DNA of 64,000 nucleotides from Acidimicrobiaceae bacterium (lineage in GTDB: Bacteria; Actinomycetota; Acidimicrobiia; Acidimicrobiales; RAAP-2), in contig DAHUZJ010000021.1 of assembly GCA_027306585.1 (NCBI GenBank), positions 3,564 to 67,563 on the forward strand. Direction: 5' to 3'. Shown here in pieces: positions 22,991 to 50,715 of the stretch (positions are counted from its first letter, which is position 1; every line of letters starts with the position of its first letter). A program made the translations under genes and the position numbers. The notes under the pieces were generated by a model, which saw only the letters and a program-made list of their open reading frames with translations, made no database searches and was not told the DNA's origin.

Positions 22991-24598
22991 GTGCGTGGTC
23001 GGGTGTCCGTCGCCGTCCTCACCCTCGCCGCCGGACTCGCGGTCCTCGCGTGGGCCGGTCCGGCGGGGGCCGGCGTTGCGGCCCGGTCCAACGGCTCCGA
23101 TACCGCACGGAGCGCGTCGCGACGGCGCGGCACCTTCCAGGGTCCCGACGGCGTGGAGGCCTCCTGGGTCATCAAGGAGAACGACAGGCCCGGGACCACG
23201 GCCTGGCGCATCACCGGCCACCAGACCCCCACAGGCATCATGGGCTATGCCAACCGGGTCGAGGCCCGGCGCGGCCAGGTGGTCACGCTCTTCGTGTCCA
23301 CCAGGGCGCCCTCGTTCCGAGTGGAGGCATTCCGCATGGGCTACTACCACGGCAAGGGGGCGCGCCTCGTCTGGCAGTCGGGCAAGGTCGCCGGGGTCGT
23401 CCAGCCGACATGCCCCGTCACCCCGGGGATCAACATGGTCGAATGCCACTGGGCCGCCTCGACGCACTTCTCGGTGGACCGCCAGTGGGTCCAGGGCGAT
23501 TACCTGCTCAAGCTCGTCGGCAGCCAGGGTCAGCAGGCGTACGTCCCGCTCACCGTGTGGGACCCGGCCAGCCGGGCCGCCTACGTCGTCATGGAGGGCT
23601 CGTTCACCCAGGAGGTGTTCAACCCGTTCGGCGGCTACGACCTGTACCAGGGCGCGACCCCGTGTGCCGCGGGGGTCTACCCGTGCTCGAGCCGGTCCCG
23701 GGTGGTCTCCTTCGACCGGCCGTACACCTACGCCTACGGGCAGGGCGCCGGGACGTTCCTCAGCCTCGTGTACCCGCTCACCCGGTGGATGGAGAAGCAC
23801 GGCCTCGACGTCACCTACTGGACGGACCTCACCTTGCACGAGCACGGCACACTGCTCCCCCGCCATCGCGTGCTGATCTCGACCGGCCACGACGAGGAGT
23901 GGTCGCTCCACATGCGCGACGCTGCCACCGCCGGGCTGGACCGCGGCGTCAACATCGCCTTCTTCGGGGCCAGCCCGGTGCTGCGCAAGGTCCGGCTGCA
24001 GCCGTCGCCGCTCGGCCCTGACCGGGAGATCGTGAACTACCGCGACCCCACAGCCGATCCGGAATTGGCGACCGACCCGGCGCGCGTGAGCCAGAACACA
24101 TGGGGCCAAGCCCCCGCCGACCTCCCCGCGAGCGCCCTCGTGGGCGCCGCGTACGTCGGCTTCAACAACACAGCCGCCTTTCCCCTCGTGGTCTCGAACC
24201 CGTCGTCGTGGCTCTTCGCCGGCACCGGGCTGGCGGCCGGTGCCCAGGTGCCCGGCGTGCTCTCCACCGACTTCCAGGAGTACCAGCCGACAGGTGACAA
24301 CCCGCCCGGCGTGGAGATCGTCGCCCATTCGCCGGTGACCGTCACCTTGCACGCCACAACGCAGATGTACGCCGACACGACGTACTACACGATGCCCGGC
24401 GGGGGGGCAGGTGTCTTCGAGAGCGGCGCCAACTCGTGGATCCCGTCGCTCGCTCCGTGCCCGGCGACGACGCCCGCCGCAGCTTGCCCGGCGAAGACCA
24501 TGCGCAAGCTCACCGGCAACGTGCTCCGGGTGTTCGGGCAAGGCCCGGTCGGCCGACGCTATCCGTCGGTCGCCAATTGGCAGCAGTTCTACGGGTGA
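22991..24598 (+). CDS. secreted protein resembling the N,N-dimethylformamidase large-subunit-like family (DUF6605-type)
   Basis: Signal peptide VAVLTLAAGLAVLAWAGPAGA. The segments GYANRVEARRGQVV, GDYLLKL and STGHDEEWSLHMRD are reminiscent of that family. This is a by-eye assignment. Confidence 0.5.
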   Translation: MRGRVSVAVLTLAAGLAVLAWAGPAGAGVAARSNGSDTARSASRRRGTFQGPDGVEASWVIKENDRPGTTAWRITGHQTPTGIMGYANRVEARRGQVVTLFVSTRAPSFRVEAFRMGYYHGKGARLVWQSGKVAGVVQPTCPVTPGINMVECHWAASTHFSVDRQWVQGDYLLKLVGSQGQQAYVPLTVWDPASRAAYVVMEGSFTQEVFNPFGGYDLYQGATPCAAGVYPCSSRSRVVSFDRPYTYAYGQGAGTFLSLVYPLTRWMEKHGLDVTYWTDLTLHEHGTLLPRHRVLISTGHDEEWSLHMRDAATAGLDRGVNIAFFGASPVLRKVRLQPSPLGPDREIVNYRDPTADPELATDPARVSQNTWGQAPADLPASALVGAAYVGFNNTAAFPLVVSNPSSWLFAGTGLAAGAQVPGVLSTDFQEYQPTGDNPPGVEIVAHSPVTVTLHATTQMYADTTYYTMPGGGAGVFESGANSWIPSLAPCPATTPAAACPAKTMRKLTGNVLRVFGQGPVGRRYPSVANWQQFYG

Positions 24599-24616
24599 GC
24601 GGCCGGGGCGCCCGGC

Positions 24617-24769
24617 TCAGTGGGCACCCGCGTGGCGCTCGAGGAACCGCAGGATCGTGGCGTGCTTCTCCGTGTCGAGGAGCATGAGCTCGACCAGGTC
24701 GCGAGTGTCCACGCCTGCGCCCGTCGCCGCCAAGCCCTGCCGTGCCGTCTCCCAATCGCTCGTGGTCAT
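24617..24769 (-). CDS. hypothetical 50-aa protein
   Basis: ATG at 24769 preceded by GGAGGGCGGCC (a GGAGG about 7 nt upstream). The sequence is MTTSDWETARQGLAATGAGVDTRDLVELMLLDTEKHATILRFLERHAGAH. I recognise no family. Confidence 0.35.
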   Translation of the reverse strand: MTTSDWETARQGLAATGAGVDTRDLVELMLLDTEKHATILRFLERHAGAH

Positions 24770-24895
24770 GGCCGCCCTCCGTCCGCAGGCTGGTGTCAGC
24801 GTACGAAGCGGCTGCCGGCCGCGGCAGGGCCGATGGACCCTGGTAGCCGGGGTCGGGCGCGAGGGTGATCGTGCCGGGCCAGTAGCGTCGCACCG

Positions 24896-25843
24896 ATGGT
24901 CCGCGAGCTCGTCGTGCTCGGCTCGGCCAGTCAGGTGCCGACCCGCCGCCGGAACCACAACGGCTACCTCCTGCGATGGAATGGCCACGGCGTTCTCTTC
25001 GACCCGGGGGAGGGGACGCAGCGCCAGCTCCTCCTGGCGGGTGTCGCGCCGTCGGCGGTGACCGCCATCTGCATCACCCATTTCCACGGTGACCACTGCC
25101 TCGGCCTGCCGGGGGTGCTCCAGCGCCTGGCGCTCGACGGCGTCGAGCGGCCCGTCCCCATCGTCTTCCCGGCCGCCGGGCGGGAGTACTTCGACCGCCT
25201 CCGGCATGCCTCGTCCTTCGACGACACCCTCGACGTGCGGCCCCTTCCCCTCGAGGCGCCGTCCGACGGGTCCACGGTGCCGGTGCCCCTCGACCTCGGC
25301 GGCGGCCTCTGCCTCGAGGTCGCCGCCCTGGCGCACCGGATCCCCACGGTTGGCTTTCGCCTGGTCGAGCCGGCCGGCCGCACCATGGTGCCCCAGCGGT
25401 TGGCGGCTGCGGGTGTGAGCGGTCCCGACATCGGACGCCTGGAGCGGACCGGGGCCGTCCGGGTGGGCGGGCGCGACGTGCGGGTGCAGGACGTGAGCAT
25501 CGAGCGGCCCGGCCAGCGGGCGGCAGTGGTCATGGACACCGGGTGGTGCGCCGGTGCGCTCGCGCTCGCTGACCACGCCGACCTTCTCGTGTGCGAGGCG
25601 ACGTTCACCACCGCCGACGCTGACGTCGCCGCCCGGTCCGGGCACCTGACGGCTGCCCAGGCGGGCCGGCTGGCGAGCGAGGCGGGCGCCACCCACCTTC
25701 TCCTGGCCCACTTCTCCCAGCGGTACCCGGACGTGGCTCCGCTCGTGGCGGAGGCACGCGCCGCCTTCGCCGGCCGGATCACCGCCGCCGAGGACCTGCA
25801 GCGGGTGGCACTGCCGGCGCGCCGCCGGGCGATCGCCCGGTGA
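24896..25843 (+). CDS. rnz: ribonuclease Z (metallo-beta-lactamase fold)
   Basis: LGSASQVPTRRRNHNGYLL, ITHFHGDHCLGLPG (HxHxDH) and C-terminal LAHFSQRY. Confidence 0.85.
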   Translation: MVRELVVLGSASQVPTRRRNHNGYLLRWNGHGVLFDPGEGTQRQLLLAGVAPSAVTAICITHFHGDHCLGLPGVLQRLALDGVERPVPIVFPAAGREYFDRLRHASSFDDTLDVRPLPLEAPSDGSTVPVPLDLGGGLCLEVAALAHRIPTVGFRLVEPAGRTMVPQRLAAAGVSGPDIGRLERTGAVRVGGRDVRVQDVSIERPGQRAAVVMDTGWCAGALALADHADLLVCEATFTTADADVAARSGHLTAAQAGRLASEAGATHLLLAHFSQRYPDVAPLVAEARAAFAGRITAAEDLQRVALPARRRAIAR

Positions 25844-26152
25844 CGGGGGAACGGCCCCGCGCCCCCGGGTGGCGGCCCGTGCCGGACGAGGGACGGCGTC
25901 ACGGGCGCGAGGCACCTCGCTCGCATCGTGAATTCGCACAACCGGGCGTACCGTGGGCCGGCACCCCCTTTGGCACGAGGCCGACCCCGACCGCACTCGT
26001 TCTGCCTGGTCGAGGGCGAAGCGATTGACACGGCGGCTCCGGCACCGTTGGCTACAGTTCGGATCAGGTCGGTCGATGGACCGGTGGCTCACGGAGGGCC
26101 GCCACGAGCCGGCGGTGGCCTTCGTGCACCGCGGGAGAGGAAGGCCAGTTCG

Positions 26153-27715
26153 ATGGACGACGTGCTCTGGGAGCTCCGCACCGACGAAGACGACGCGTCA
26201 CTGCTCGCCGGTTGCCTCCTGCAGGCGCCGGATGGGATCGACCTCGCCTACCGTCTCCTCGATCGGGTCGCCGAGCGTGACCGGGTGGGGGAGCCCTCCC
26301 TCGTGCTGCACCCAGCCCGCCTTGGCCCGCAGGTCTTCGTGCGCGGTGGCGTACCACCTACGGCCGACGACGTGGCTACCTTGCTCGGGAGGGGCCGGGG
26401 GCTGCACGCCGACGATGCGCGGCTCATGACGGGCATTCAGCCGGTCGTGGCCGCCAGCTGCGAGCGGGCCCTTGATGCCGACGTCACCGCTTCGGCGGAC
26501 GGCGCCGTCGGCGGCCTGGCGAGCCGGCCGTCGCTCGACATCGAGGTCGCCCGTGCCGCGGCCTGCGGTGCTCGCTACGGCTGGCCGGTGACGGCGCTGC
26601 TGCTGGCACTCGCAGGGGCTGACGGACCGTTCGGCGGCTGGGACGCGCTGTGCCGGGCCGTGCTGGCGGCGACCCGAGTCGGTGACCTCGTCGGGGTCGC
26701 TGGTCCCGGCCGGATCCTGGCTCTCCTCGGGAACGGTGGCCCCGGCGTCGGAGCGCCCTTTCTCGAGCGGGTACGAGCCGCCCTCGGCGCTCCGGGGGTG
26801 GAGGGCGCGCCGCCGCCCGGGGTGGTCACGGCCACGGCGAACGTTCCGGCGGAGACGGTCGACCCGGAAGAGGTCTGGCGCCTGCTCGACGAGCGACTGC
26901 TCGAGCACGGCGGTGCGTTGGGCACGTCGGGCGAGCACTGGTCCGGCGCGGTGCCGAGCAGCCTCGAGCTCCAGCTGCGAGCGTTGCCGGGCGTCGTCGC
27001 CGTGGGGACCTCGGCACGTGGCGCCGTGGGCGGCCCGCAGCTGACCGTCGTGGCCCTGGAAGCCGGCGACCACGTGCACGCCGCCGCCAGCCGGTTGGTG
27101 GCGCAGCATTTCGGCGACGGTGCCGTACCCCTCGTCACCGTTGGTGCGAGCCCGCCTTCCGGGCCTTCCGTCCGGACGAATGGCGCGACGAACGGCCACG
27201 AGCGAGCGACGCTGCTGAGTGGCTCCAGGGCTCCGACGGCCGTGCCCAGCACGAACCACACACGCGTCGTGGTCGCCACTGGCGAGCGCCGAGCCCTGGT
27301 GGCCGCCTCCGGGGTCCCCCGCGTCGCCCTCCTCACCGCCCGATTCGACCCGGTCACCGGAACGAGCGAGGTCGCGCTCGGGCGCGACGGTGACCGTGCC
27401 GTGGGCCGAGCAACCGCCGGTCCGCTCGCGGGCGGAGCGCAAGCGACGCTGGCCGCCCTCGGTGTCCTCGGCGTCGACGTGCCCTTCTACCTTCGATCGG
27501 TGGCGCGAGCCCGGGACCTCCCGGGTGAGCCGGTCGTCGTGGTGCTGGCTCCGCGGCACCCACCTGCCGATGGCTTGGCGCAGAGCGCCGAAGGCGACCG
27601 GGTCGGGGTCGCCGGCGGCGACGGTGAGGTGGAGGCAGCCAGCCGGGCCACGCTGGGGGCCCTCAATCGCTTCCTGTTCGCCCGGCCGGAGCTCCGCTCG
27701 GCCGACCGAGGGTGA
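26153..27715 (+). CDS. hypothetical protein with a degenerate GGDEF-like core (GPGRI in place of GGDEF) and retained RxxD spacing
   Basis: ATG 26153 is preceded by GGGAGAGGAAGG. The segment ARYGWPVTALLLALAG...LCRAVLAATRVGDLVGVAGPGRILALLGN...APFLERVRAAL follows the GGDEF-domain template. Its stop overlaps the next start (GTGA). Confidence 0.55.
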   Translation: MDDVLWELRTDEDDASLLAGCLLQAPDGIDLAYRLLDRVAERDRVGEPSLVLHPARLGPQVFVRGGVPPTADDVATLLGRGRGLHADDARLMTGIQPVVAASCERALDADVTASADGAVGGLASRPSLDIEVARAAACGARYGWPVTALLLALAGADGPFGGWDALCRAVLAATRVGDLVGVAGPGRILALLGNGGPGVGAPFLERVRAALGAPGVEGAPPPGVVTATANVPAETVDPEEVWRLLDERLLEHGGALGTSGEHWSGAVPSSLELQLRALPGVVAVGTSARGAVGGPQLTVVALEAGDHVHAAASRLVAQHFGDGAVPLVTVGASPPSGPSVRTNGATNGHERATLLSGSRAPTAVPSTNHTRVVVATGERRALVAASGVPRVALLTARFDPVTGTSEVALGRDGDRAVGRATAGPLAGGAQATLAALGVLGVDVPFYLRSVARARDLPGEPVVVVLAPRHPPADGLAQSAEGDRVGVAGGDGEVEAASRATLGALNRFLFARPELRSADRG

Positions 27716-30552
27716 ACCGCCCCCTGTACCGGTACGGCTCCTCGTTCACGGACCGGGGGAGCGGTCTACGGTTCGAGGCCCACCACCCGGCCACCCGACC
27801 CGACCGCTGGAGGGCCTACGTCGACGGCGTGGCGCGCGAGTACGAGCGCTACGGGATCGGCGAGATCATCGACAGGGCGGCCCTGGAGCGCGGCGACGGG
27901 GTATCGGTGTTCTTCGTCGGCGTCGATGCCGACGATCAGGTCGTCGCCGGGCTGCGCTGTCACGGTCCTCTCGACGAAGCCGCGTCGGCCCAGGCCCTGG
28001 CCGAGGTGGCCCGCTCCCCGGAGTGGGCGGAGCACCGCCAAGCGATCGCCGCGCTGACACCCCACGGCGTCGTCGAGATCAAGGGCGCATGGCGCCAGCT
28101 GAGTGGCGACGGGAACCACCAGGTGACGAAGGCCATGGCCCGCTGCTGTGTGCACGCGGCCGAGTGGCTCGGGGCCGAGGTGCTGCTGGCCTCGGTCGCC
28201 GATCGAATGCGCCCGCTCATGGCAGGCGTCGGCAGCCTCATGATGGGAAAGGAGTCAGCGCCGTACCCGAGCGACCGCTACCGGACGATCCTCACGCAGC
28301 TCCGGCGTTCCCAGACGTGCCGAGAGATGGAGCCGCAGGTCGCGCAGCTTCTGCGGCAGGACGCCGAGGACCTGCGACGTAGCTCGCTCGATGGTCCACC
28401 CACGGGCTGGCGACCGATCGTCCTCGACCCTCGGCAACGCGCCGATCGCCAGATACTGGTGACCTTGCGCAGCGATCCCGGCGTCTTCGTGATCGACGCA
28501 CTGGACTGCCAGCGCAAGGAGCTCGCACAACTGCTGCCGACGCCGACCGCTCCCCTCATGAGCGAGGCACCACGCCACGTCTACTACCCGTGGCGACGGG
28601 TCCTCGTCAAGATACTGGGCCCCGAGTCGTTCCGCGCGGTACGCCTGGACCGCAACCGCAACCGGATCACGCGTGCCGAGCAAGACCGCCTCCGGCGCCA
28701 GCGTGTGGGGATCGTGGGGCTCAGCTCCGGCCACGCCGTCGCCACCACCCTCGCGCTGGAGGGGCTGTGCGGGGAGCTGCGGTTGGCCGACTTCGACGAC
28801 ATCGGGCTCACCAACTTGAACCGGATACCGGCGTCGATCTTCGACGTCGGCGTCAACAAGGCCGTGGTGGCCGCACGCCGGGTGTCCGAGATCGACCCGT
28901 ACCTTCCCGTGCAGATCGTGCCGGACGGGCTCACCGTCGACAACGTCGACGCGTTCGCGGCAGGGCTCGACCTGGTCATCGAGCAGTGCGATGAGATCGG
29001 CATGAAGGTCCTCGTGCGCGAGATCGCCCGTCGTCAAGGTGTGCCGGTCGTGATGGAGACGAGCGACCGGGGACTGCTGGACGTCGAGCGCTTCGACCTC
29101 GAGCCGGAGCGCCCGCTCTTCCACGGGCTCCTCGGTGATGTCACCGCCGAGCAGCTGCGGTCGCTGTCGACCGAGGAGAAGATCCCGCACGTCTTGGCGA
29201 TCGTAGAGCCCGACAAGGCGTCGGCCCGTGGAGCTGCGTCACTGGCGGAGATCGGGCGGACCCTCACCACCTGGCCACAGCTCGGATCCGACGTAACGCT
29301 CGGCGGAGCGTCGGTGGCCGCGGCCGTGCGCCAGATCGGCCTCGGGGTTCGGGTCCCGTCGGGCAGGACCCGGGTGGACATCGACGCCGCGCTGGCCACG
29401 CTCGAGAGCCCAGGAGGCGGTGCCCGGGACGAGCTCCGCGACGCCGACGACGTCCCGGCGGAGCAGCCCGCGGGGACTGCCGGCGCTGCGTGGGCTCCCC
29501 CCAGGGACCCCGTGCTGTCCATCGTGCACGCTGCGACGATGGCGCCCTCGTGCGGGAACGGACAGCCGTGGCAGTTCGCCCTCGATGACCGGCGTCTCGA
29601 CGTAGAGCTCGTGCGTGCCAGGGGTTGTGGCGTCATGGACGTGGGGTCGCGGGCGAGCTACGTGGGGCTTGGTGCGGCCATCTTCAATGCCCGGGTGGCG
29701 GCGGCGCGGGTCAACCGCCTCGGTGCCGTGCACCTCTTTCCGCACGGGCCGAGCTCGGATGTCGTCGCCACGCTTGCCCTCGAGGGGGGGAGCGACGACG
29801 AGCTCGCCGACCTCTACGCGCCGATGTTGCAGCGATGCTCCAACCGTCGTCATGGTCAGCCCGCTCCGCTCGATCTCGCCGTCGGTGGACAGCTCGTGGG
29901 CGCCGCGACGGCCGAAGGTGCGACGCTCCACCTGGTCACCGACCCGGAACGCTTGGCGGAGTGCGCCGAGGTCCTGCGTGCTGCCGAACGGATCCGCTTC
30001 CTCACGGCGGCGCTCCGGAATGAGACGATGCGCGAGATGCGTTGGCCCGGGGGGGACGTGCGCAGAGGAATCGACGTCGCCACGCTCGAGCTGTCGAGCT
30101 TCGAGATGTCGTCGTTGCAGCTCATGCGCCGCCACGACGTGATGGAGCTGCTCGACCGTTGGGACGCGGGAGATGCCTTGGGCGACTACCTCAAGTCGGC
30201 CGTGCTCTCGAGCTCGGCGATCGCCGTCGTCTCGATGTCGAACCAGGCCCCGGCGGCGTACGTCACCGGCGGGATGGCGTTGGAGCGGGTGTGGATCGAG
30301 GTGCAGCGCCTGGGGCTGGCGGTGCACGCCATCGCCCCGTCGTTCCTTTACGCGGTCCAGGCCGCCGACTACGAGAAGTTGGTCGGTGCCCGGTGGGCGG
30401 ATGAGCTGCGCACGCTCTCGGAGCGGTTCCGGTCCGTCGTGAGCATCGAGCCCACGGCAGCGCTCGCGCTGGTGCTGCGTCTCAGCCATGCGCCGCCGCC
30501 GACGGCTCGCAGCATACGGCTCGGTGTGGACGAGGTGCTGCGGCGCAAATAG
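27712..30552 (+). CDS. 946-aa fusion: N-terminal GNAT-like domain (tentative) + Rv1355c-family E1/ThiF-like domain + Acg-type nitroreductase-like domain
   Basis: The middle reads YYPWRRVLVKILGPESFRAVRLDRNRNRITRAEQDRL..VGIVGLSSGHAVATTLALEGLCGELRLADFDDIGLTNLNRIP. The C-terminus has MAPSCGNGQPWQF and a tandem nitroreductase-like fold. About 230 aa at the N-terminus are extra relative to the 715-aa Rv1355c layout. Confidence 0.65.
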   Translation: MNRPLYRYGSSFTDRGSGLRFEAHHPATRPDRWRAYVDGVAREYERYGIGEIIDRAALERGDGVSVFFVGVDADDQVVAGLRCHGPLDEAASAQALAEVARSPEWAEHRQAIAALTPHGVVEIKGAWRQLSGDGNHQVTKAMARCCVHAAEWLGAEVLLASVADRMRPLMAGVGSLMMGKESAPYPSDRYRTILTQLRRSQTCREMEPQVAQLLRQDAEDLRRSSLDGPPTGWRPIVLDPRQRADRQILVTLRSDPGVFVIDALDCQRKELAQLLPTPTAPLMSEAPRHVYYPWRRVLVKILGPESFRAVRLDRNRNRITRAEQDRLRRQRVGIVGLSSGHAVATTLALEGLCGELRLADFDDIGLTNLNRIPASIFDVGVNKAVVAARRVSEIDPYLPVQIVPDGLTVDNVDAFAAGLDLVIEQCDEIGMKVLVREIARRQGVPVVMETSDRGLLDVERFDLEPERPLFHGLLGDVTAEQLRSLSTEEKIPHVLAIVEPDKASARGAASLAEIGRTLTTWPQLGSDVTLGGASVAAAVRQIGLGVRVPSGRTRVDIDAALATLESPGGGARDELRDADDVPAEQPAGTAGAAWAPPRDPVLSIVHAATMAPSCGNGQPWQFALDDRRLDVELVRARGCGVMDVGSRASYVGLGAAIFNARVAAARVNRLGAVHLFPHGPSSDVVATLALEGGSDDELADLYAPMLQRCSNRRHGQPAPLDLAVGGQLVGAATAEGATLHLVTDPERLAECAEVLRAAERIRFLTAALRNETMREMRWPGGDVRRGIDVATLELSSFEMSSLQLMRRHDVMELLDRWDAGDALGDYLKSAVLSSSAIAVVSMSNQAPAAYVTGGMALERVWIEVQRLGLAVHAIAPSFLYAVQAADYEKLVGARWADELRTLSERFRSVVSIEPTAALALVLRLSHAPPPTARSIRLGVDEVLRRK

Positions 30553-30613
30553 GCATGCACACGCGTCGCCGGAGCGCCCCACCCGAGCGATCGAGTGCCA
30601 GCGTGGACAGGGG

Positions 30614-30642
30614 TCGACGCGCGGGTTGTGACCGGGTATCAT
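30614..30642 (+). promoter_or_regulatory. candidate promoter of the first GGDEF-EAL gene
   Basis: -35-like TCGACG (30614-30619), a 17-nt spacer and -10 TATCAT (30637-30642). It sits in a locally AT-richer patch. Confidence 0.3.
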
Positions 30643-30672
30643 CAGTTGACCTATTGCTTGGGGATGGGAACC

Positions 30673-32943
30673 ATGAGCGTAGAGTCAGCTAGCGGGGACA
30701 ATCGGACGCGGGAGAGCAACACCATTGATCTCCTCGCGGCAGTCGTGCGTTTGCTCGAGGGTGCGGTCGCCGCGACCATCGTGCCGCGCGCGGAGTTCAG
30801 CAGCCCGATCGTATGGGCAGATCTCGCCAACGCAGATGTCGCCGCGGGGTTGGGCTCGCTCGCCGCGCGCTGCTTCGCGGACTGCGGTCCATGGGGCGAG
30901 AGCGCCGCCGACGGTTGGACGGGTTGGGTGGAGCCAATCGCCGACGTCGACGGTGAAGGCCCTCCGGTTGGTGTCCTGGCGTTCGCCGTGCGTGACCGGC
31001 CGAGCTTGGACGCCAACGAGCAGACGACCGTTGCGTTGTTCGCTCGATTGTGCGGCGTCGTCCTGGCGTCGCCGGTTGCGACAGAACAGGCGACACAGCG
31101 GCTTCGGCTGGACGAGCTGGTCTCCACGATCAGCGAGCGTCTGATGGTGACGACGGGACCGAACCTCGAGGCGGCACTGGACTGGACGGTGGAGCACCTG
31201 TGCCGGTTCCTGGGGGCGGACGTGGCCTTCTTGCGGCGCAACGACCGGGCCCAGGACGTCAGCGTCCTCATGGCGTTCTATCCCCCGCGGAACATGCCGA
31301 TCGAAGACGACCCGCTCGGCATCGTTCCCTTCGACGCAGACCCCATCTTCGCTGCCACGAAGGACCTGAAGATCCCGCTCATCGTCCGCAACGCGGCCGA
31401 GACCGACGATCGCTACCTGCAGCGCGTGAAGGACGCGGGCCAGAGCATCGACTTCACGGGTGCGGCGGCTCCCTTGGTGCACGGTGACACGACCGAAGGC
31501 ATCTTGGCCTTCGTCTACCTGTCCGAGTACTGGTGGTCGGAGCGCGAGGTCAACGCGCTTCGCACCATTGCCGCCTTGCTGGTCCAACTGCTGCACCGTG
31601 TGGACGCGGAGGACCGCCTGTGGCACAGCGCGTTGACCGATGAGCTGACCGGCCTCGCCAATCGGCGCGCCCTCTTCGCGGAGGTGGCGCGCCGCCAGCG
31701 CTCGCCGGGGAGCTCGATCGCCCTTCTGTTCATGGACCTCGACAGGTTCAAGGTGATGAACGACCACTTGGGGCACGGTGCCGGTGACAGAGTCCTCCAG
31801 GTGATCGCCGACCGGATCCGCACGTCGCTGCGACCATCGGACTTTGCGGCCCGGCTGGGTGGCGACGAATTCGTCGTGGTGCTCGACGAGACAGGCGGGG
31901 GCTTGGCGGCCACGGCCGCAGGCAACCGCCTCCTCGAGGTCATCTCGTCACCGATCGATGTCGACGGTCAGCGCGTGACGCACACCGGCAGCGTCGGCAT
32001 CGCGTTGTGCAGTGACAGCTCGCTCGGAGGAGAGGAGCTGCTCGGGCAGGCCGACGTCGCTCTGTACGCCGCCAAGTCGCAGGGTCGCAACCGCGTGGTC
32101 GTCTTCGACCATGAGCTCGAGCAGAGGGTGGCCAAGCGCTCGAGCACGGAGCTCGAACTGCGCCAGACGTTCACTGAGCACGCGTTGCGGCTCGCCTATC
32201 AGCCCGAGGTCGACCTTCGCACGGGCAAGCTGCTCGCCGTCGAGGCGTTGGTGCGCTGGCAGCGCCACGGCGAGCTCGCCGAGGCGAGCCAGTTCATCCC
32301 GGTCGCCGAAGAGACGAACCTCATCACGGACATCGACCGATGGGTCCTCGACGAGGCGTGCGCCCAGATGGCGGCGTGGTCGCTGGCCCATCCGCACCTC
32401 GACCACTTGGTCGTGCGAGTCAACATCTCTCCCGTCCAGCTGGCGGTGAACGGGCTCGCGCGAATGGTGGCCGACTGCCTGCACAACTCCGGTCTCGCTC
32501 CCGAGCGACTCTGTCTCGAGATCACCGAGCAGGCCGTGATCGGCGACATCGAGCAGGTCGTCCGGGTGCTGCACGATGTTCGGGGGATGGGCGTGCAGCT
32601 GGCGGTCGACGATTTCGGCACCGGGTTCTCGTCGATGATCCAGCTCAAGAACCTTCCGGTCGATGTCCTGAAGGTCGATCGGGTGTTCGTGGACCGCATC
32701 GCGGAGGACGCGGGCGACCAGGCCATCGTGGAGGCCATCGTCCGCCTGGCCACGGCCTTCGAGCTGGACGTGGTGGGCGAAGGGGTGGAACGCCTCGCCG
32801 ACATGGAGACGCTCGTGCAGCTGGGATGCCTCCGGGCGCAGGGCTACCTGCTCGCCCGGCCGCTCCCACCTCTGGCGCTCGAGCCACTGTTCGCGCGTGG
32901 CGGCATCGATCTCGCTTCGATTGGGGCGTCGGCGCCGGCGTGA
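30673..32943 (+). CDS. GAF-GAF-GGDEF-EAL protein (diguanylate cyclase/phosphodiesterase), paralog 1
   Basis: RPSDFAARLGGDEFVV carries an intact GGDEF with an RxxD I-site. The EAL side has AVEALVRW, DDFGTGFSS, KVDR and GEGVE. The start could be ATG 30664 or 30673. Confidence 0.9.
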   Translation: MSVESASGDNRTRESNTIDLLAAVVRLLEGAVAATIVPRAEFSSPIVWADLANADVAAGLGSLAARCFADCGPWGESAADGWTGWVEPIADVDGEGPPVGVLAFAVRDRPSLDANEQTTVALFARLCGVVLASPVATEQATQRLRLDELVSTISERLMVTTGPNLEAALDWTVEHLCRFLGADVAFLRRNDRAQDVSVLMAFYPPRNMPIEDDPLGIVPFDADPIFAATKDLKIPLIVRNAAETDDRYLQRVKDAGQSIDFTGAAAPLVHGDTTEGILAFVYLSEYWWSEREVNALRTIAALLVQLLHRVDAEDRLWHSALTDELTGLANRRALFAEVARRQRSPGSSIALLFMDLDRFKVMNDHLGHGAGDRVLQVIADRIRTSLRPSDFAARLGGDEFVVVLDETGGGLAATAAGNRLLEVISSPIDVDGQRVTHTGSVGIALCSDSSLGGEELLGQADVALYAAKSQGRNRVVVFDHELEQRVAKRSSTELELRQTFTEHALRLAYQPEVDLRTGKLLAVEALVRWQRHGELAEASQFIPVAEETNLITDIDRWVLDEACAQMAAWSLAHPHLDHLVVRVNISPVQLAVNGLARMVADCLHNSGLAPERLCLEITEQAVIGDIEQVVRVLHDVRGMGVQLAVDDFGTGFSSMIQLKNLPVDVLKVDRVFVDRIAEDAGDQAIVEAIVRLATAFELDVVGEGVERLADMETLVQLGCLRAQGYLLARPLPPLALEPLFARGGIDLASIGASAPA

Positions 32944-33150
32944 CCGGTTGAGCCGCGCCCGGGTGTGCTCCGCCCCGGCCCGGACCGTGCTGAGCCGGCC
33001 GGTCGTCCTCGCTCCCGGACACCCACCTCTGGCGGTGGTGCCGGTGCCGTCACTACGCAGGGCTGGCGTGACGTTGCGCCTGGAAGTAGCATTGACGTGG
33101 GGTCGCTGTCACCGGGGGACGTGGCGGCGAAATGGGATGGGGACAATGTG

Positions 33151-35472
33151 ATGAGATCGGAACCACCGGTCATCAATGACCGCCTTGGGACGCTGCTGGC
33201 CGCCACCGTTCGCCTGATGCGCGGCGCAGTCGCTGCAGCCGTGGTGTCAGCATCCGGCAACGAAGCTCCCGCGGGCTGGGCTACCACCGAAGTCGCCGGG
33301 CTGGCGGAGGAATTGCGCGCCGTGGTGAGCAAGCGGCTCGACACCGTGGGCCCCTGGGGGGCCTTGCTCCTGGCGGGATCGCCCGAGCGGACCGTGTGGA
33401 TCGAGCCGATCGCGGGTCACGGCCCGTCCGACGCCGAGGGTCACGCGCTCCAATACCTCGAGGGTCCGAGCGGTACCGACCGCGTGATCGGAGCGCTTGC
33501 CGTCGCGTTCGAAGGCTCCTTTCCCGCGCTCACCGGCGAGGAGGGCAAGACCGTACGGCTGCTGGCGCGCCTCTGCGGCGGAGCCAGTTTCGGCGTGCAG
33601 CACGTGGAAGACGTCGCCGATCAGCGTCAGCTGGACGACCTGGTCTCGCGGATCAGCGAGCGGTTGATGTCGACGACATCGTCCTCACTTCGAGAGAACC
33701 TCGACTGGACGGTCGAGACCTTGTCCCGGTACCTGGGGGCGTCGGCAGGCTTCCTGCGCCGCAACGACCACGCCGCCGACACCAGCATCCTGGTGGCCGA
33801 GTACCCGCGGCGAGACCTCGACGCGGACAGCGACCCGTTGGCGGTGGTGCCCTTCGACGCCGATTCCATCTTCGCGGCGACCCGAGACTTCAAGGCTCCT
33901 CTCGTCATCCACGACCCGAGCGCGGTGAGCGTTGATTATGCGGAGAGAGTGGCGTCGGCGACTGGGCTGAGGGTGTTCACGGCCGCCGGGGTACCCCTCG
34001 TCCACGCCGACGTCACCGAGGGCTGCCTCGGCTTCGTGTTCGGGTCGCAGTTCGATTGGTCGGAGCCCGAGCTCAACGCCGTGCGCGCGGTCGGTTCCCT
34101 GCTCGTGCAACTGCTGCACCGGATCGACGCCGAAGAGCGACTCCGCCACAGCGCGATGACCGACGAGCTGACGGGCCTCGCCAACCGGCGGGCGCTGCTC
34201 GACGAGGTCAGCCGTTGTCCGATGAGCCCGCGGCACCCGTTGGCGATGCTCTTCCTCGACCTCGACCGTTTCAAGGTCATGAACGACTTCCTCGGCCACC
34301 GTGCCGGCGACAAGCTGCTCTGCGTGATCGCCGATCGAATCCGTACGTCGTTGCGCCCGACGGACTTCGCCGCCCGACTGGGCGGCGACGAGTTCGTCGT
34401 CCTGCTCGAGGACGGCGGCGACATCCTTGGCGCAGTGGCCGCAGCGGAGCGGCTCCTCGAGTTGATCGCCCTCCCGATCGACATCGGGGGGCGGAGCGTG
34501 ACCCACACGGGGAGCATCGGCGTCGCTGTCGGTGACCATCCCACCATGAGCGGCGAGAAGCTGCTCGGTCATGCCGACATCGCCATGTACGCCGCCAAGT
34601 CGCAGGGTCGGAACCAGATCGTCGTCTTCGACGCCGGACTGGAGGCTCGTGTGGCGAACCGCTCGAACACCGAGCTCTTGCTGCGCAAGGCCATGGCCAA
34701 CGAAGAGTTCGAGGTCTACTACCAACCGGAGTTCGATCTGCTTACGGGCCGCCTTCTCGCCGTCGAGGCGTTGCTCCGGTGGCACCGCGAGGGCCATGGC
34801 GTCGTCGGAGCCGGCGAGTTCATCCCGGTGGCGGAGGAGACCCACCTCATCACGGAGATCGACCGCTGGGTGCTCGAGCAGGCCTGCAGCCAGCTGGCGA
34901 GGTGGCGTCGGGAGTACCCCGCGGTCCAGCTCGATGTGCGAGTCAACATGTCACCGGCCCAGTTGGTGATGCCAGGGGTCGTGCAGACGGTGCAGCGATC
35001 GTTGCGGCGTTCGGGTCTTCCGGCCGAGCTGCTCTGTCTCGAGATCACTGAGCAGGCCATGATCAGCGACATCGACCAAGCCGTCCACATTCTTCGCGAC
35101 GTGCGCCGGCTCGGCGTTCAGCTGGCCATCGACGACTTCGGCACCGGCTACAGCTCGATGGTGCAATTGAAGAACCTGCCGGTGAACGCGCTCAAGATCG
35201 ACCGCGAGTTCGTGGACGGCATCGCCGACGACCTCACCGACCAGGCGATCGTGGACTCGGTCGTGCGCCTCGCCCGGGCCTTCCGGCTCGAGGTGGTGGC
35301 AGAGGGCGTGGAGACCGTGCCCGACCTGCAGACGCTCGTGCGGCTGGGTTGCCGCCGGGCACAGGGGTTCCTCCTGGCGAAGCCGATGCCAGCATCCGAG
35401 GTGGCACCGCTCCTCGCTCGGCGGGGCATCGACCTCGTCGCGCTCACGGCGCCCGCCGGCGCCCGCCACTGA
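33151..35472 (+). CDS. GAF-GAF-GGDEF-EAL protein, paralog 2
   Basis: It is colinear with paralog 1 (RPTDFAARLGGDEFVV, AVEALLRW, DDFGTGYSS, KIDR, AEGVE). An in-frame upstream GTG at 33097 or 33121 is possible, because the GDN motif conserved with paralog 1 lies upstream of ATG 33151. Confidence 0.9.
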   Translation: MRSEPPVINDRLGTLLAATVRLMRGAVAAAVVSASGNEAPAGWATTEVAGLAEELRAVVSKRLDTVGPWGALLLAGSPERTVWIEPIAGHGPSDAEGHALQYLEGPSGTDRVIGALAVAFEGSFPALTGEEGKTVRLLARLCGGASFGVQHVEDVADQRQLDDLVSRISERLMSTTSSSLRENLDWTVETLSRYLGASAGFLRRNDHAADTSILVAEYPRRDLDADSDPLAVVPFDADSIFAATRDFKAPLVIHDPSAVSVDYAERVASATGLRVFTAAGVPLVHADVTEGCLGFVFGSQFDWSEPELNAVRAVGSLLVQLLHRIDAEERLRHSAMTDELTGLANRRALLDEVSRCPMSPRHPLAMLFLDLDRFKVMNDFLGHRAGDKLLCVIADRIRTSLRPTDFAARLGGDEFVVLLEDGGDILGAVAAAERLLELIALPIDIGGRSVTHTGSIGVAVGDHPTMSGEKLLGHADIAMYAAKSQGRNQIVVFDAGLEARVANRSNTELLLRKAMANEEFEVYYQPEFDLLTGRLLAVEALLRWHREGHGVVGAGEFIPVAEETHLITEIDRWVLEQACSQLARWRREYPAVQLDVRVNMSPAQLVMPGVVQTVQRSLRRSGLPAELLCLEITEQAMISDIDQAVHILRDVRRLGVQLAIDDFGTGYSSMVQLKNLPVNALKIDREFVDGIADDLTDQAIVDSVVRLARAFRLEVVAEGVETVPDLQTLVRLGCRRAQGFLLAKPMPASEVAPLLARRGIDLVALTAPAGARH

Positions 35473-35699
35473 GCCGCCCGGACCGCTTCGACGGGCTGGC
35501 CGTCCAGGCGAGATCGAGGGAGCCCGGCCCGGCCACGGCGAGCGCTGCGCCGGACCAGCCGGTCGCGGCGCGTCGGCGTCCGCTCCGCACCGTCCCGAGC
35601 TCCCCTCCGGCCGCCGACCGTCGGGGTGCCGGGTGCTGTGCGCCGGGGTTGCCGAATGGTTGCAGAAGCTGCCAGCGTGGCACATCGGGCTGCCGCCGG

Positions 35700-36713
35700 T
35701 CACGATCGTGTGCGGGACCAGGCGAGGAGCCGGCCGAGGGGCCACGTGTTGACGACCCGTGACGGCGGGACCCCTGCGGCCAAGGCCTGCGCGCACCCGT
35801 GGTGCTGCCACTCGAGCTGACCGGGGGCGTGGGCGTCGGTGTCGATCGCCACGAGGCACCCGACGCCCGCCGCTTGGCGGAGGAGGTCCACGGGCGGGTC
35901 GAGGCGCTCGGGCCGGGAGTTCACCTCGACCGCCGTACCCGTGCGGGCGCAGGCTGCGAAGACCGCCTCGGCGTCGAACGCCGACGGCGGCCGGCCGCGT
36001 CCGACGACGAGACGCCCGGTGCAGTGGCCCAGGACGTCGCTGCGAGGGTTCTCGATGGCCGCGACCATGCGCTCGGTCATGGCGTCGGCGTCCATGCGGA
36101 GCTTCGAGTGCACCGACGCCACCACCACGTCGAGCCGGTCCAGCAGGTCCTCGTCCTGGTCCAAGGACCCGTCCACCAGGATGTCCACCTCGATCCCGGC
36201 CAGCAGGCGGAACGGCGCGAGCTCCTCGTTGACCGCCGCCACCGCGTCCAGCTGGCGGCGCAGGCGGTCGGCGTCGAGCCCGTGCGCGACGGTGAGGCGA
36301 GGGCTGTGGTCGGTGAGGGCGAGGTAGTGGTGCCCGAGCGCGGCCGCCGCCCGCGCCATCTCGGAGATCGGGCTCCCACCGTCGGACCAATCCGAGTGGC
36401 TGTGGAGGTCCCCCTGCAAGGCTGCGTGGAGCCGCGCCACCTCCGGGGTGAGCTCGACGCGGTGGCGCTCCTCGAGCACGTGGAGGTAGGGCGGCTCCTC
36501 GCCGCGCAGCGCCGCCTCGACCACGGCGGCCGTCGTGGCCCCCAACCCGGGCAGGTCCGTGAGCCGGCCGGCACCGGCCAGCGCCACCAGCCGCTCGTGC
36601 CCGGTCTCCTCCACCGTCGCCGCCGCCCGCCGGAAGGCGCGCACCTTGTAGGCCTCCGCCCGTTCCGCCTCGAGGAGGTACGCGATCCGCCGGAGGGTAT
36701 CGGCCGCGTTCAC
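35700..36713 (-). CDS. PHP-domain phosphoesterase with an N-terminal helix-hairpin-helix region (PolX C-terminal-like)
   Basis: LTDLPGLGATTA is the HhH. GDLHSHSDWSDG, ALTDHS, SVHS and DTDAH are PHP metal motifs. The GTG start at 36713 overlaps the upstream stop (GTGA). Confidence 0.75.
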   Translation of the reverse strand: MNAADTLRRIAYLLEAERAEAYKVRAFRRAAATVEETGHERLVALAGAGRLTDLPGLGATTAAVVEAALRGEEPPYLHVLEERHRVELTPEVARLHAALQGDLHSHSDWSDGGSPISEMARAAAALGHHYLALTDHSPRLTVAHGLDADRLRRQLDAVAAVNEELAPFRLLAGIEVDILVDGSLDQDEDLLDRLDVVVASVHSKLRMDADAMTERMVAAIENPRSDVLGHCTGRLVVGRGRPPSAFDAEAVFAACARTGTAVEVNSRPERLDPPVDLLRQAAGVGCLVAIDTDAHAPGQLEWQHHGCAQALAAGVPPSRVVNTWPLGRLLAWSRTRS

Positions 36714-37030
36714 GGACGCGCGCACCGCACGCAGCGGTCGGCCGTCGGGCGGGCGGCCAGCCGCTCCTCGCCGATCGGGCCGCCACACGCGGCGCACTGC
36801 TCGTACGTGCCGGCTTCGAGGCGCGCGAGCGCGTGTTCGACCGCCGCCAGGCGGTCCTGGGCGTCGGCGACCAGCGTGGCCACCCGTGCCCGCTCGAAGG
36901 CGACCGTCGAGCCCTCCGGGTCGTGCTCGTCGTCCGCGCCGCCCCCGGCGCTGCGCAGGTCGTCCAGCTCGGCACCGGCGGCCGCCAGCCGCGCCCCCGC
37001 CCGCCGGCGCTCTTCGTCGAGCGCCGCCAT
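36710..37030 (-). CDS. TraR/DksA family C4-type zinc-finger protein
   Basis: 106 aa with a coiled-coil region followed by CAACGGPIGEERLAARPTADRCVRC. Confidence 0.75.
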   Translation of the reverse strand: MAALDEERRRAGARLAAAGAELDDLRSAGGGADDEHDPEGSTVAFERARVATLVADAQDRLAAVEHALARLEAGTYEQCAACGGPIGEERLAARPTADRCVRCARP

Positions 37031-37091
37031 CACCGACCGGCGGCCCACGGGCCCACCGTCCACGCTCCCGTGGGAGCGCGTCGGCCGGCGT

Positions 37092-44597: not shown

Positions 44598-45607
44598 CGC
44601 CGGCCCTCCACGAACACCGAGAAGGCGGCGGCCGCGAGGGCCAGGGCGGCCACGCCGGCCGCCTTCCACATGCGCCCCAGGTCGCGGGTCGGGACCACCG
44701 GGTCGGGGGGCAACCCGTAGACCTCGGGCTCGTCCAGGAGGAGGAAGAAGGCACCGCACCCCCCGACGCCGTCATCGGGGTCGTCGCCGTACAGGCGGGC
44801 TTCGGTGGCGCCGAGCGCGTGGAGCTGCGCCACCCGTCCCCGGGCCCGGTCGCGCAGCTCGTCGAGCGTGCCGAACTGGATGGAGTCGGTCGGGCACGCC
44901 TTTGCGCACGCCGGTTCGAGCCCGTCGCGCAGGCGGTCGTAGCAGAGCGTGCACTTGTGGGCCTGGCCGTCCGTCGGCCGACGGTCGATCACGCCGAAGG
45001 GGCAGCCCGACACGCAGTACCCGCAACCGTTGCAGATATCGTCCTGGACGACCACGGTGCCGAACTCGGTGCGGAAGAGGGCGCCGGTCGGGCAGACGTC
45101 GAGACAGCCGGCGTGGGTGCAGTGCTTGCAGACGTCGGACAGCATGAGCCAGCGGAAGTCCATCCGGTCGGCGCCGCCGGGCGGTGGCGGGCCGCCCCCG
45201 GGGACGCCGGGGTCGAGCGGGGCCGTGCCGAGCTCGCCCCCGCCCCGCTCGGCCTGTCGCAGGCGCCCGGCCACCACCCCGGCGGCGTAGCTCGTCGAGG
45301 ACGGGCCCACGGGCAGACCGGCCACGCCGCCATCCTGGCGGCCGAGCCGCCGGGGCTGCTCGACGAAGGCGACGTGCCGCCACGAGTCGGCGCCGAGCAT
45401 GCCGGTGTTGTCGAGCGACATGCCGAGGAGGTTGAACCCGTCCTCCGGCACCGCGTTCCACTCCTTGCAGGCCACCTCGCACGCTTTGCAGCCGATGCAG
45501 ACGGACGTGTCCGTGAAGAACCCGACCCGAGGGGGATGGCCGACGTGGCCCGCCTGGGTGGCCACGTCGTCGACCGGTCCGTACAGGGGATGCGTCCCGA
45601 GGGTCAT
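44594..45607 (-). CDS. fdhB: formate dehydrogenase iron-sulfur (beta) subunit with a C-terminal TM anchor
   Basis: Four Cys clusters: CIGCKACEVAC, CKHCTHAGCLDVC, CNGCGYCVSGC and CTLC..EPACAKAC. Tail helix AAGVAALALAAAAFSVFV. ATG 45607 has a GGAGGA RBS and overlaps the fdhA stop. Confidence 0.9.
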   Translation of the reverse strand: MTLGTHPLYGPVDDVATQAGHVGHPPRVGFFTDTSVCIGCKACEVACKEWNAVPEDGFNLLGMSLDNTGMLGADSWRHVAFVEQPRRLGRQDGGVAGLPVGPSSTSYAAGVVAGRLRQAERGGGELGTAPLDPGVPGGGPPPPGGADRMDFRWLMLSDVCKHCTHAGCLDVCPTGALFRTEFGTVVVQDDICNGCGYCVSGCPFGVIDRRPTDGQAHKCTLCYDRLRDGLEPACAKACPTDSIQFGTLDELRDRARGRVAQLHALGATEARLYGDDPDDGVGGCGAFFLLLDEPEVYGLPPDPVVPTRDLGRMWKAAGVAALALAAAAFSVFVEGRR

Positions 45608-48600: not shown

Positions 48601-48957
48601 CTCGAGGTCGAGCTCCCGCCACTCGGTGGCATAGGGGGCCCGGTAGAGCACCCGTTGCTCGCGCTGAGGTCCGGTGACCAGCTGCTTGCTGGCTGAGCCC
48701 TTGGGGCACAGCCGCCCGCGAGAGATCGGACTGTCCGGGTCGCCCTCGATCTGGATGACGTTCCCGTCCTTCACGTACACGAGCTGGCCGCAGCCCACCG
48801 CGCAGTAGGGGCAGACCGACCGGGCGACGCGATCGGCCGAGCGCGTGCGGGGCGCCAGCTCGACGCTCTGGCGGGACGCCACGGCGGCGCCCCGTCCCCA
48901 GGGGTCGCCGCCCATGAGCTGCCGGACCACCGGCCACGACTGGATCAGGCGTCGCAT
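45604..48957 (-). CDS. fdhA: formate dehydrogenase catalytic (alpha) subunit, selenocysteine-containing (in-frame TGA at 48394-48396)
   Basis: Track ORFs 48394..49086 and 45604..48297 are in the same frame. Together they read ...CPYCAVGCG...IENQARI-U-HSATVPGLGASFGRGGATN...IMGSNMAEAHPVGF, colinear with FdnG/FdhF around the Sec residue. A GGAGGAG RBS precedes GTG 48960 / ATG 48957. Confidence 0.85.
48352..48393 (-). promoter_or_regulatory. candidate bacterial SECIS element immediately 3' of the UGA
   Basis: The mRNA reads UGA CAC UCG GCC ACC GUC CCC GGU CUG GGG GCG UCG UUC GGC. The GUCCCC/GGGGGC stem (48381-48365) closes a GGUCU loop. The GGU CUG codons sit at the same offset from UGA as in E. 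coli fdhF, and an outer GGCC/GGCC pairing is possible. Confidence 0.6.
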
Positions 48958-49092
48958 CACTCGGCTCCTCCGTCCGCGTGTGCCCACCGCGTCGTGCGGC
49001 GGGCTGCTCCACTTATGCCCGCTACCGCCCGCCGCTACCGCCCGCCGCTGCCCCCCTCGCCGGGCTCGGGCCGACACGCACCCCACCGCCCC

Positions 49093-49773: not shown

Positions 49774-49801
49774 TTGACATCCAGGGGGAACGGCGCATAC
49801 T
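49774..49801 (+). promoter_or_regulatory. candidate sigma-70/SigA-type promoter of coxM
   Basis: Perfect -35 TTGACA (49774-49779), a 16-nt spacer and -10 CATACT (49796-49801). An RBS-like GAAGGGGG precedes ATG 49835. Confidence 0.4.
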
Positions 49802-50713: not shown

Positions 50714-50715
50714 CG

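Follow-up and report, generated by a model that had tools for sequence, protein, structure and literature searches.

The stretch of DNA analysed here, 64,000 nucleotides (nt) of contig DAHUZJ010000021.1 from an Acidimicrobiaceae bacterium with a G+C content of ~73% (hereafter the window, to whose positions all coordinates given without a locus label refer), carries at positions 26153-35472 four consecutive plus-strand genes, P1-P4, and these four genes are one conserved unit. Results of our analysis firmly indicate a module that joins a complete, predicted oxazolone synthase (P2), one or two bifunctional enzymes of cyclic di-guanosine monophosphate (c-di-GMP) turnover (P3 and P4 in the window), and, in Acidimicrobiia, a dedicated GGDEF-derived partner (P1). 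On balance, we lean towards regarding the locus as the form that the actinobacterial trzAS-dcpA locus takes in Acidimicrobiia, and as a selected unit in which oxazolone production is coupled to c-di-GMP signalling. That oxazolone synthesis and c-di-GMP are really coupled in function, in one way or another, we consider quite probable.

The Mycobacterium tuberculosis proteins Rv1356c and Rv1355c have been identified as TrzA and TrzS, respectively (Kleetz et al., J Biol Chem 2025, PMC12856293). TrzA N-acylates tryptophan from acyl-CoA, and the TrzAS pathway leads from N-acyl tryptophan to N-acyl tryptazolone (PMC12856293). The TyzACB pathway had been described earlier by the same laboratory, with FeeM (2G0B) and BjaI (5W8C) as the nearest structures to TyzA (PMC10404671). 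The authors of the TrzAS study see the physiological role of bacterial N-acyl oxazolones as the major open question, and one sentence of their discussion mentions the adjacency of trzAS to the c-di-GMP turnover genes rv1354c and rv1357c in M. tuberculosis (PMC12856293). Our literature search found no paper beyond this one that joins Rv1355c or oxazolones to c-di-GMP, and in the oxazolone-pathway literature examined there is no mention of a three-module fusion or of Acidimicrobiia. An earlier reading of the window, made by a model from the sequence alone (hereafter the sequence-only reading), had described the chemistry of the Rv1355c family as unknown and its link to c-di-GMP as undescribed. 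Both statements are outdated, the former in the light of the TrzA and TrzS assignments and of the three catalytic modules present in P2, and the latter in the light of the published remark on adjacency.

Conservation of the trzS-dcpA Linkage

In the forward survey, one genome per species was scanned with the P2 alignment, and the six-frame open reading frames (ORFs) of the resulting 80 loci (labelled with L numbers below) were searched with profiles built from the window. The in-group comprises 55 loci of Actinomycetota related to P2 (Acidimicrobiia, Mycobacteriales, Nakamurella, Jiangella, and Phytoactinopolyspora), and the out-group comprises 25 more distant loci (Streptomyces, Kibdelosporangium, Solirubrobacteraceae, Myxococcota, Bacteroidota, and Acidobacteriota). 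The sequence-only reading made its hypothesis depend on the linkage being conserved in related genomes, and the survey found this conservation: a gene encoding a GAF-GGDEF-EAL protein is adjacent to trzS in 48 of the 55 in-group genomes, while none of the 25 out-group loci has an adjacent c-di-GMP gene of any kind (Fisher's exact p ~1e-14, uncorrected for shared ancestry). The GAF-GGDEF-EAL gene lies immediately downstream on the same strand in 45 in-group loci, one of them cut by the contig end, and is divergently adjacent in three. Among the others, one has such a gene at a distance of 3.7 kb, three have a GGDEF-only gene within ~1 kb, and three have no c-di-GMP gene within 10 kb. Of the out-group loci, a single one contains a GGDEF-EAL gene, at a distance of 2.6 kb. 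A neighbour-joining tree of the TrzS domain (no bootstrap) places all linked loci in one clade, and the genes that flank the module are unrelated from locus to locus. A TrzA-like gene still adjoins the TrzS-like gene in the out-group loci, which indicates that the acyltransferase link is general, while the c-di-GMP link is limited to one clade.

The reverse search, in which metagenome contigs were queried with the P3-type GAF region, resulted in 80 loci. In all 73 of those with upstream DNA, TrzS is encoded directly upstream, the remaining seven beginning at the GAF gene; some of the contigs repeat earlier ones. Since the query consisted of six Acidimicrobiia GAF sequences, this reciprocal test covers Acidimicrobiia only. 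The pairing of trzS and dcpA is no chance feature of mycobacteria: two classes of Actinomycetota retain it, and both search directions recover it.

As a separate observation, the TrzA-like gene of Bacteroidota is placed immediately downstream of the TrzS-like gene, in the reverse of the actinobacterial order, with no c-di-GMP genes nearby (L063 12227-12916, L067, L070, L075, L079, and L083-L086).

The Predicted Synthase P2

P2 is predicted to be a TrzA-TrzS fusion, i.e., a complete three-module oxazolone synthase in one chain. Its residues 232-944 match the NCBIfam model of the Rv1355c family (NF005901) with 897 bits vs. a cut-off of 476, and comprise a ThiF-like and a flavin-dependent oxidase domain (Table 1), the latter region having weak matches to Nitroreductase models as well. 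Residues 1-231 obtained no assignment from the Pfam and NCBIfam libraries. The AlphaFold model of residues 1-240 (predicted local distance difference test score, pLDDT, 90.7) has FeeM (2g0b) as its best match in the PDB, followed by BjaI, TofI, and EsaI; FeeM and BjaI are also the structural neighbours published for TyzA (PMC10404671). The profile of this domain detects a separate ORF directly upstream of trzS in other actinobacteria, namely, Rhodococcus, Nocardia, Mycolicibacterium, Nakamurella, Jiangella, and Phytoactinopolyspora (E 1e-30 to 1e-47), and pairwise comparisons with the ORFs at the trzA position in the first five of these genera give 29-35% identity (E 1e-17 to 1e-32). The best 120 homologues of P2 are 930-1010 amino acids (aa) long and in all cases cover P2 over its full length, so that the fusion is the rule in the P2 clade.

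All residues with a conservation of 97% or more among 80 TrzS-like proteins are found in P2. In the ATP part, they are G336, S338, G340, D360, D362, N368, N370, R371, K383, and D427, the last of which occupies a position in the ThiF 'CD' motif. In the flavin part, they are P612, S613, G615, N616, Q618, P619, W620 (motif PSxGNxQPW), R708, R712, R762, E775, W861, and R936. These residues represent family-wide conserved positions rather than a one-to-one mapping onto D217, R540, and Q651 of Mycobacterium smegmatis. By analogy with the characterised TrzAS, TyzACB, and OxzAB pathways, we infer that the product of P2 would be a small lipid, an N-acyl oxazolone. The older assignment of P2 as a sulfur-carrier adenylyltransferase of the MoeB/ThiF type ('MoeY') was considered and rejected, the MoeB, ThiF, and MoeZ equivalog models scoring 21-63 bits vs. 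cut-offs of 152-647.

In a mycobacterial sub-clade, a conserved ORF of ~470 aa adjoins trzS (L029 8538-9956(+), L031 2247-3728(+), L033 8539-10017(-), and L039 8569-9996(-)), with 64-77% identity between the loci. These four loci gave no detectable TrzA-like ORF, and members of the sub-clade have often lost the c-di-GMP link.

The Predicted c-di-GMP Enzymes P3 and P4

P3 and P4 are predicted bifunctional c-di-GMP enzymes of the DcpA/Rv1354c type. The GGDEF and EAL domains of P3 contain the motifs RPSD...GGDEF, EALVR, NIS, EITE, DDFGTG, KVD, and EGVE, and all motifs are likewise intact in P4 (RxxD, GGDEF, EAL, DDFGTG, and the other EAL motifs). A model of the GAF region and the GAF signature both speak for orthology of P3 and P4 with their mycobacterial counterparts. 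The model, built from P3 and P4, matches the trzS-adjacent proteins of Mycobacterium, Nocardia, and Rhodococcus with E 1e-27 to 1e-37, and the distinctive signature of the proximal GAF domain is kept from Acidimicrobiia to Mycobacterium. P3 and P4 have ~150 additional N-terminal residues in comparison with the mycobacterial enzymes, which the GAF-region profile matches only from about its position 150. The two proteins are 56% identical to each other, P3 being nearest to the single copy of L005 (68%) and P4 nearer to the single copy of L003 (62%). The duplication is therefore old, as each of the two is nearer to a single copy from another contig.

Additional c-di-GMP genes occur around the module in other genomes. 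In three loci of the window type, L003 (8071-9906(-)), L005 (7869-9758(-)), and L007 (5449-7053(-)), a further GGDEF or PAS-GGDEF gene directly precedes the P1 homologue in divergent orientation; the RNase Z gene occupies this position in the window, which has P4 as a second GAF-GGDEF-EAL gene instead. Several Acidimicrobiaceae genomes have an EAL-only gene on the opposite strand, at 3-4 kb downstream of the module (L009 18624-19496(-), L013 13733-14602(-), L016 19768-20610(-), and L032 11374-12426(-)), an arrangement that recalls the EAL-only rv1357c beside trzA in M. tuberculosis.

The Degenerate GGDEF Protein P1

P1 belongs to a small family of 38 homologues, none of them named and most of them encoded by metagenome-assembled genomes of Acidimicrobiales. 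Neither the whole protein nor its single domains match any Pfam or NCBIfam model, even at E up to 10. The AlphaFold2 model of P1 (pLDDT 82) comprises four folded parts and a disordered linker. A Foldseek search superposed it on many GGDEF structures, e.g., on that of Thermotoga maritima (4urg, TM-score 0.70-0.72, root-mean-square deviation 3.2 Å), and whole-model matches include cyclases of the GAF/PHY-GGDEF architecture and PelD (4dmz). An alignment with P3, P4, and cyclases of a sister clade of Acidimicrobiia (the 'gene a' proteins discussed below) places GPGRI where the catalytic GGDEF motif would be expected and reveals a 9-residue deletion in the FKxINDxxGH segment of the active-site region. 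The R-x-G-D sequence five residues upstream of the GGDEF-equivalent motif is kept, and its R175 and D178 are invariant in 36 homologues. Equally invariant is R206, which follows D178 by 28 residues and aligns with R445 of P3. The spacing of R175, D178, and R206 equals that of R359, D362, and R390 in PleD, the last of which is the secondary I-site arginine of PleD.

Loss of the active site with retention of the I-site is the usual signature of a former cyclase turned into a c-di-GMP-binding protein, and P1 is therefore likely to be a c-di-GMP receptor. Judging from these motifs, we find it rather probable that P1 binds c-di-GMP. Both the I-site and the C-terminal domain are under clear purifying selection in the 36 homologues.

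The N-terminal domain of P1 is common to the 'gene a' cyclases of the sister clade. It has no sequence match in Pfam or the PDB, and hhalign indicates no relationship to the N-terminal and GAF regions of P3 and P4 (probability <1%). The C-terminal domain has 117 representatives in 1.84 billion proteins, nearly all with the architecture of P1 or with the 200-aa architecture of the 'gene b' proteins. Its model topology consists of three strands followed by alpha-beta-beta-beta-alpha. A helix motif, G-x-G...AASRATLGALNR, is found in this domain and also in the 'gene b' proteins P0184-P0271. A search for the fold of the N- and C-terminal domains among PDB sequences gave marginal matches only, to the double-stranded-RNA-binding domain of RNase III (E 0.3-0.9) and, with a profile, to uS11 (E 0.056), and no fold was assigned on this basis.

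Comparison with related loci suggests how P1 arose. In most related Acidimicrobiia loci, two genes located downstream of the GAF-GGDEF-EAL gene take the place of P1: 'gene a', which encodes the N-terminal domain of P1 and a GGDEF domain that passes the Pfam threshold (74.6 bits), and 'gene b', which encodes the two C-terminal domains. Consistent with their fusion in P1, the two genes could share a 4-nt overlap in 51 of 68 loci. Among the P1 relatives of the downstream type, 60 retain GG[DE]EF and five have variants of it. The fused proteins encoded upstream are degenerate at this position in 14 of 14 cases, and the split forms encoded upstream are mixed, two of them being intact and four degenerate; RxxD is retained in every P1-like protein examined. 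As judged from these sequences, P1 appears to derive from an active sensor-cyclase that became fused to a rare small partner protein, the catalytic site having been lost in the clade of the window. Intermediates were observed in L095 (356-2137; upstream, fused, motif YGHRF), L096 (844-1725), and L153 (58-963), the latter two being upstream split forms that keep GGDEF. These three loci may trace the path from the active cyclase to the degenerate protein.

Gene Order and Transcription Signals

The gene content and every motif call of the sequence-only reading agree with the results of our Pfam and NCBIfam searches, alignments, and motif scan. The four same-strand genes are placed, with the coordinates it gave, between RNase Z and convergent genes; the first encodes a catalytically dead GGDEF-like protein with an I-site, the second a GNAT-like/E1-like/nitroreductase fusion that overlaps the first by 4 nt, and the last two sensor-linked proteins predicted to make and break c-di-GMP. 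The features of the locus are collected in Table 1.

Table 1. Genes, domains, motifs, and boundary genes of the P1-P4 locus (positions in the window).
Feature	Position (nt)	Strand	Remarks
RNase Z gene	24896-25843	+	NF000805, 447 bits vs. cut-off 416; upstream boundary, outside the module
P1	26153-27715	+	520 aa; degenerate GGDEF protein; start agrees with homologues
P1 N-terminal domain, aa 1-115	26153-26497	+	confident in the model; possibly a sensor
P1 degenerate GGDEF domain, aa 120-252	26510-26908	+	Foldseek and alignment to intact GGDEF domains
P1 I-site RVGD, R175-D178	26675-26686	+	R175 and D178 invariant
P1 GPGRI, residues 184-188	26702-26716	+	at the position of the catalytic GGDEF motif
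P1 R206	26768-26770	+	candidate secondary I-site arginine
P1 small alpha/beta domain, aa 265-335	26945-27157	+	motif LELELRxLPGVV; corresponds to the N-terminal part of 'gene b' proteins
P1 C-terminal domain, aa 388-516	27314-27700	+	rare, family-specific
GTGA	27712-27715	+	GTG start of P2 overlaps the stop codon of P1 (read from the sequence)
P2	27712-30552	+	946 aa; Rv1355c-family fusion (NF005901)
P2 TrzA-like N-acyl amino acid synthase domain, aa 1-231	27712-28404	+	AlphaFold2 model and ORF homology
P2 ThiF-like (E1-like) ATP-dependent cyclase domain	28648-29175	+	PF00899, E 3.5e-24
P2 flavin-dependent oxidase domain (nitroreductase superfamily)	29497-30543	+	Acg family NF047509, E 1.5e-40
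Promoter-like TCGACG-17-TATCAT	30614-30642	+	P2-P3 gap; consensus match only
P3	ORF 30595-32943	+	likely start 30664/30673; GAF-GGDEF-EAL (Pfam)
P3 domains	GAF 31162-31593, GGDEF 31630-32094, EAL 32155-32862	+	Pfam; extra N-terminal domain before GAF
P4	ORF 32965-35472	+	likely start 33151; GAF-GGDEF-EAL (Pfam)
P4 domains	GAF 33682-34116, GGDEF 34153-34617, EAL 34681-35385	+	Pfam
PHP + HHH_8 (PolX-like) gene	35700-37091	-	convergent; downstream boundary, outside the module

The start of P1 is preceded at 8 nt by the ribosome-binding site GGGAGAGGAAGG. Co-transcription of P1 and P2 is likely, and P3 and P4 may be transcribed also on their own. The promoter-like site in the gap between P2 and P3 is the only sigma-70-like match in 10.5 kb, and a -10-like TANNNT element is found at the same place in the trzS-dcpA gaps of related loci. 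Alignment of these gaps revealed only this short motif and no conserved RNA-like element. In the window (30553-30663) and in L003, L005, L007, and L087, the gap from trzS to the GAF-GGDEF-EAL gene varies rather little in length, measuring ~100-170 nt to the first aligned residue, and the TANNNT element lies ~35-40 nt before a GGGGATGGG-like ribosome-binding site. A scan for terminators between the genes of the module found none, a weak negative that says little because T-rich terminators are rare at this G+C content. An Rfam search over 24500-36500 detected no riboswitch or other RNA family, its one chance match having E 0.98.

The G+C content of the module is 0.68-0.70 (28000-36000) vs. 0.72-0.76 in the flanks, and the G+C content at third codon positions is 0.85-0.86 in P2-P4 vs. 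~0.90-0.95 in many neighbour genes. Given this offset and the unrelated contexts in other genomes, the module could perhaps move as a unit. Elsewhere in the window, several molybdenum-enzyme genes are present (45604-49092(-), 49778-53591(+), and 37092-39233(-)), among them those of a molybdopterin oxidoreductase with an Fe4S4 domain and of a flavoprotein of the CO-dehydrogenase/xanthine-dehydrogenase type with its large subunit. The ORF at 37092-39233(-) has MoCoBD matches and fails a codon-composition filter.

Possible Working of the Module

In the working that we propose, the TrzA-like domain of P2 would N-acylate an amino acid from acyl-CoA, the ThiF-like domain would close the oxazolone ring with ATP, and the flavin oxidase domain would desaturate the product with O2. 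P3 and P4 would set the level of c-di-GMP. In the wiring that we prefer, P1 would read the c-di-GMP made and removed by P3 and P4 and, via its family-specific C-terminal domains, would adjust the synthase or the DcpA-type enzymes.

The sequence-only reading had proposed that the signal passes from c-di-GMP through P1 to P2. The GTGA overlap of the two genes fits this proposal. Two observations weaken it, however: Mycobacteriales, whose trzS-dcpA link is no less strong, lack P1, and in the sister Acidimicrobiia clade the P1 equivalents are encoded downstream of the GAF-GGDEF-EAL gene and not beside P2. A step mediated by P1 cannot, in view of its absence from Mycobacteriales, be the ancestral coupling, and we regard a direct action of P1 on P2 as improbable. 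Several further points weigh in the same direction, or against our view of the locus as a whole. The P1/P2 overlap of 4 nt is possible in only 10 of the 20 loci with a P1-like gene upstream, the conserved -10-like element in the P2-P3 gap suggests that P3 may have a promoter of its own, and an I-site can be retained for reasons other than receptor function. As regards the synthase, the TrzA label of P2 is founded on the trzA-position ORFs of other actinobacteria and not on Rv1356c itself. Moreover, searches with hidden Markov models and hhalign found a TrzA-like ORF beside trzS in none of seven mycobacterial loci (L026, L028, L029, L031, L033, L039, and L043); in L027, an eighth locus of the same sub-clade, such an ORF is present beyond the divergent GAF-GGDEF-EAL gene.

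The flow of information might also be the reverse, as in LuxI/LuxR systems, which is possible, albeit on the unlikely side. The oxazolone made by P2, or its N-acyl amino acid precursor, would then be sensed by the GAF domains of P3 and P4 or by an N-terminal domain of the P1 type, resulting in a change of c-di-GMP. TrzS and this type of GAF domain are the universal partners in both searches (48 of 55 genomes and 73 of 73 reciprocal loci), the GAF signature is preserved from Acidimicrobiia to Mycobacterium, and TrzA adopts the same fold as synthases of acyl-homoserine lactones and of N-acyl amino acids, all of which is consistent with such sensing, as is the sister-clade 'gene a' product, an active-type cyclase with an intact GGDEF motif and an N-terminal domain of its own. 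In favour of it, oxazolones resemble cell-cell signals, and it is mainly in the culture supernatant that the acyl-tryptophan intermediates build up (PMC12856293). Against it, the tryptazolones are more abundant inside the cells than in the supernatant (PMC12856293), and the GAF domain of M. smegmatis DcpA is reported to have GDP as its ligand (Chen 2018, as cited in PMC8846402).

A more far-reaching idea, which we hold to be unlikely, is that oxazolones and c-di-GMP form one ancient circuit of Actinomycetota, in which the oxazolone or its precursor would be the physiological ligand, long sought, of the DcpA-type enzymes or of the N-terminal domain of the P1 family, with feedback on the synthase via P1 in Acidimicrobiia. 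If it were true, oxazolones would gain a defined role as a second-messenger input, including at the c-di-GMP genes of M. tuberculosis, of whose c-di-GMP turnover genes rv1354c and rv1357c are, to our knowledge, the only two.

Mere co-expression, in which the genes would share a stress or stationary-phase regulon with no molecular contact between their products and with P1 as an inactive remnant or scaffold, would account for the compact order of the genes on one strand with short gaps, for the stress and survival phenotypes with which DcpA as well as the oxazolone genes have been connected in mycobacteria (discussed in PMC12856293), and for the loss of adjacency without loss of trzS in L031, L039, and L053, but it is the least likely reading, and a distinctly improbable one, because the linkage is deep and reciprocal: the pairing is retained across two classes in unrelated genomic contexts, the reciprocal association is exclusive, Acidimicrobiia recruited a third c-di-GMP-type partner dedicated to the module, and the purifying selection on the I-site and the C-terminal domain of P1 does not fit a dead remnant.

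Comparison with Known Systems

As the enzyme family and its adjacency to c-di-GMP genes have already been published, the locus does not represent a new kind of system. New are the fusion of TrzA and TrzS into a single-chain synthase, the measurement of how deep and reciprocal the trzS-dcpA linkage is, and the recognition of a third member of the module, the P1 family ('gene a' plus 'gene b'), which leads from a cyclase to a probable receptor. The conserved pairing turns a passing remark of one paper into a testable hypothesis on the role of oxazolones. In addition, the locus offers a single-chain oxazolone synthase for biocatalysis, and P1, or the pair of 'gene a' and 'gene b', constitutes a small family of candidate c-di-GMP effectors.

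The closest known counterpart is the rv1357c-rv1356c-rv1355c-rv1354c locus of M. tuberculosis, in which the acyltransferase, the synthase composed of ThiF-like and flavin-dependent oxidase parts, and the GAF-GGDEF-EAL protein are encoded in the same order and on one strand. The match of P2 to the Rv1355c-family model and the conserved GAF signature are common to both loci. In the window, however, TrzA is fused to TrzS in a single chain, there are two DcpA-type genes, each with the N-terminal extension described above, the EAL-only gene is missing from the module, and P1 is additionally present. P3 and P4 share with DcpA (MSDGC-1, Rv1354c) the architecture, the intact GGDEF, RxxD, and EAL motifs, and the position downstream of trzS, and differ from it in their longer N-terminal part and in the presence of two copies.

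The modules of P2, namely, the N-acyltransferase, the ThiF-like cyclase, and the oxidase of the nitroreductase superfamily, are the same as those of OxzAB of Pseudoalteromonas rubra and TyzACB of M. tuberculosis. The out-group loci with TrzS-like genes have a TrzA-like neighbour and no adjacent c-di-GMP gene.

In the case of P1, the best comparison is with PelD and PopA, receptors that bind c-di-GMP through the I-site of a degenerate GGDEF domain. For P1, too, sequence and model indicate a GGDEF fold in which the active site is lost and RxxD is kept. Unlike PelD and PopA, it has an unrelated N-terminal domain, carries two further domains of a rare family at its C-terminus, is soluble as judged from its sequence, and is encoded in an oxazolone locus.

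The LuxI/LuxR pairs can be compared with the locus by analogy only. In both cases, an enzyme with the fold of acyl-homoserine-lactone synthases is encoded beside a signalling protein with a sensor domain. In the module described here, however, the predicted product is an oxazolone, which would require two further enzymatic steps, and the neighbour is a c-di-GMP enzyme instead of a transcription factor.

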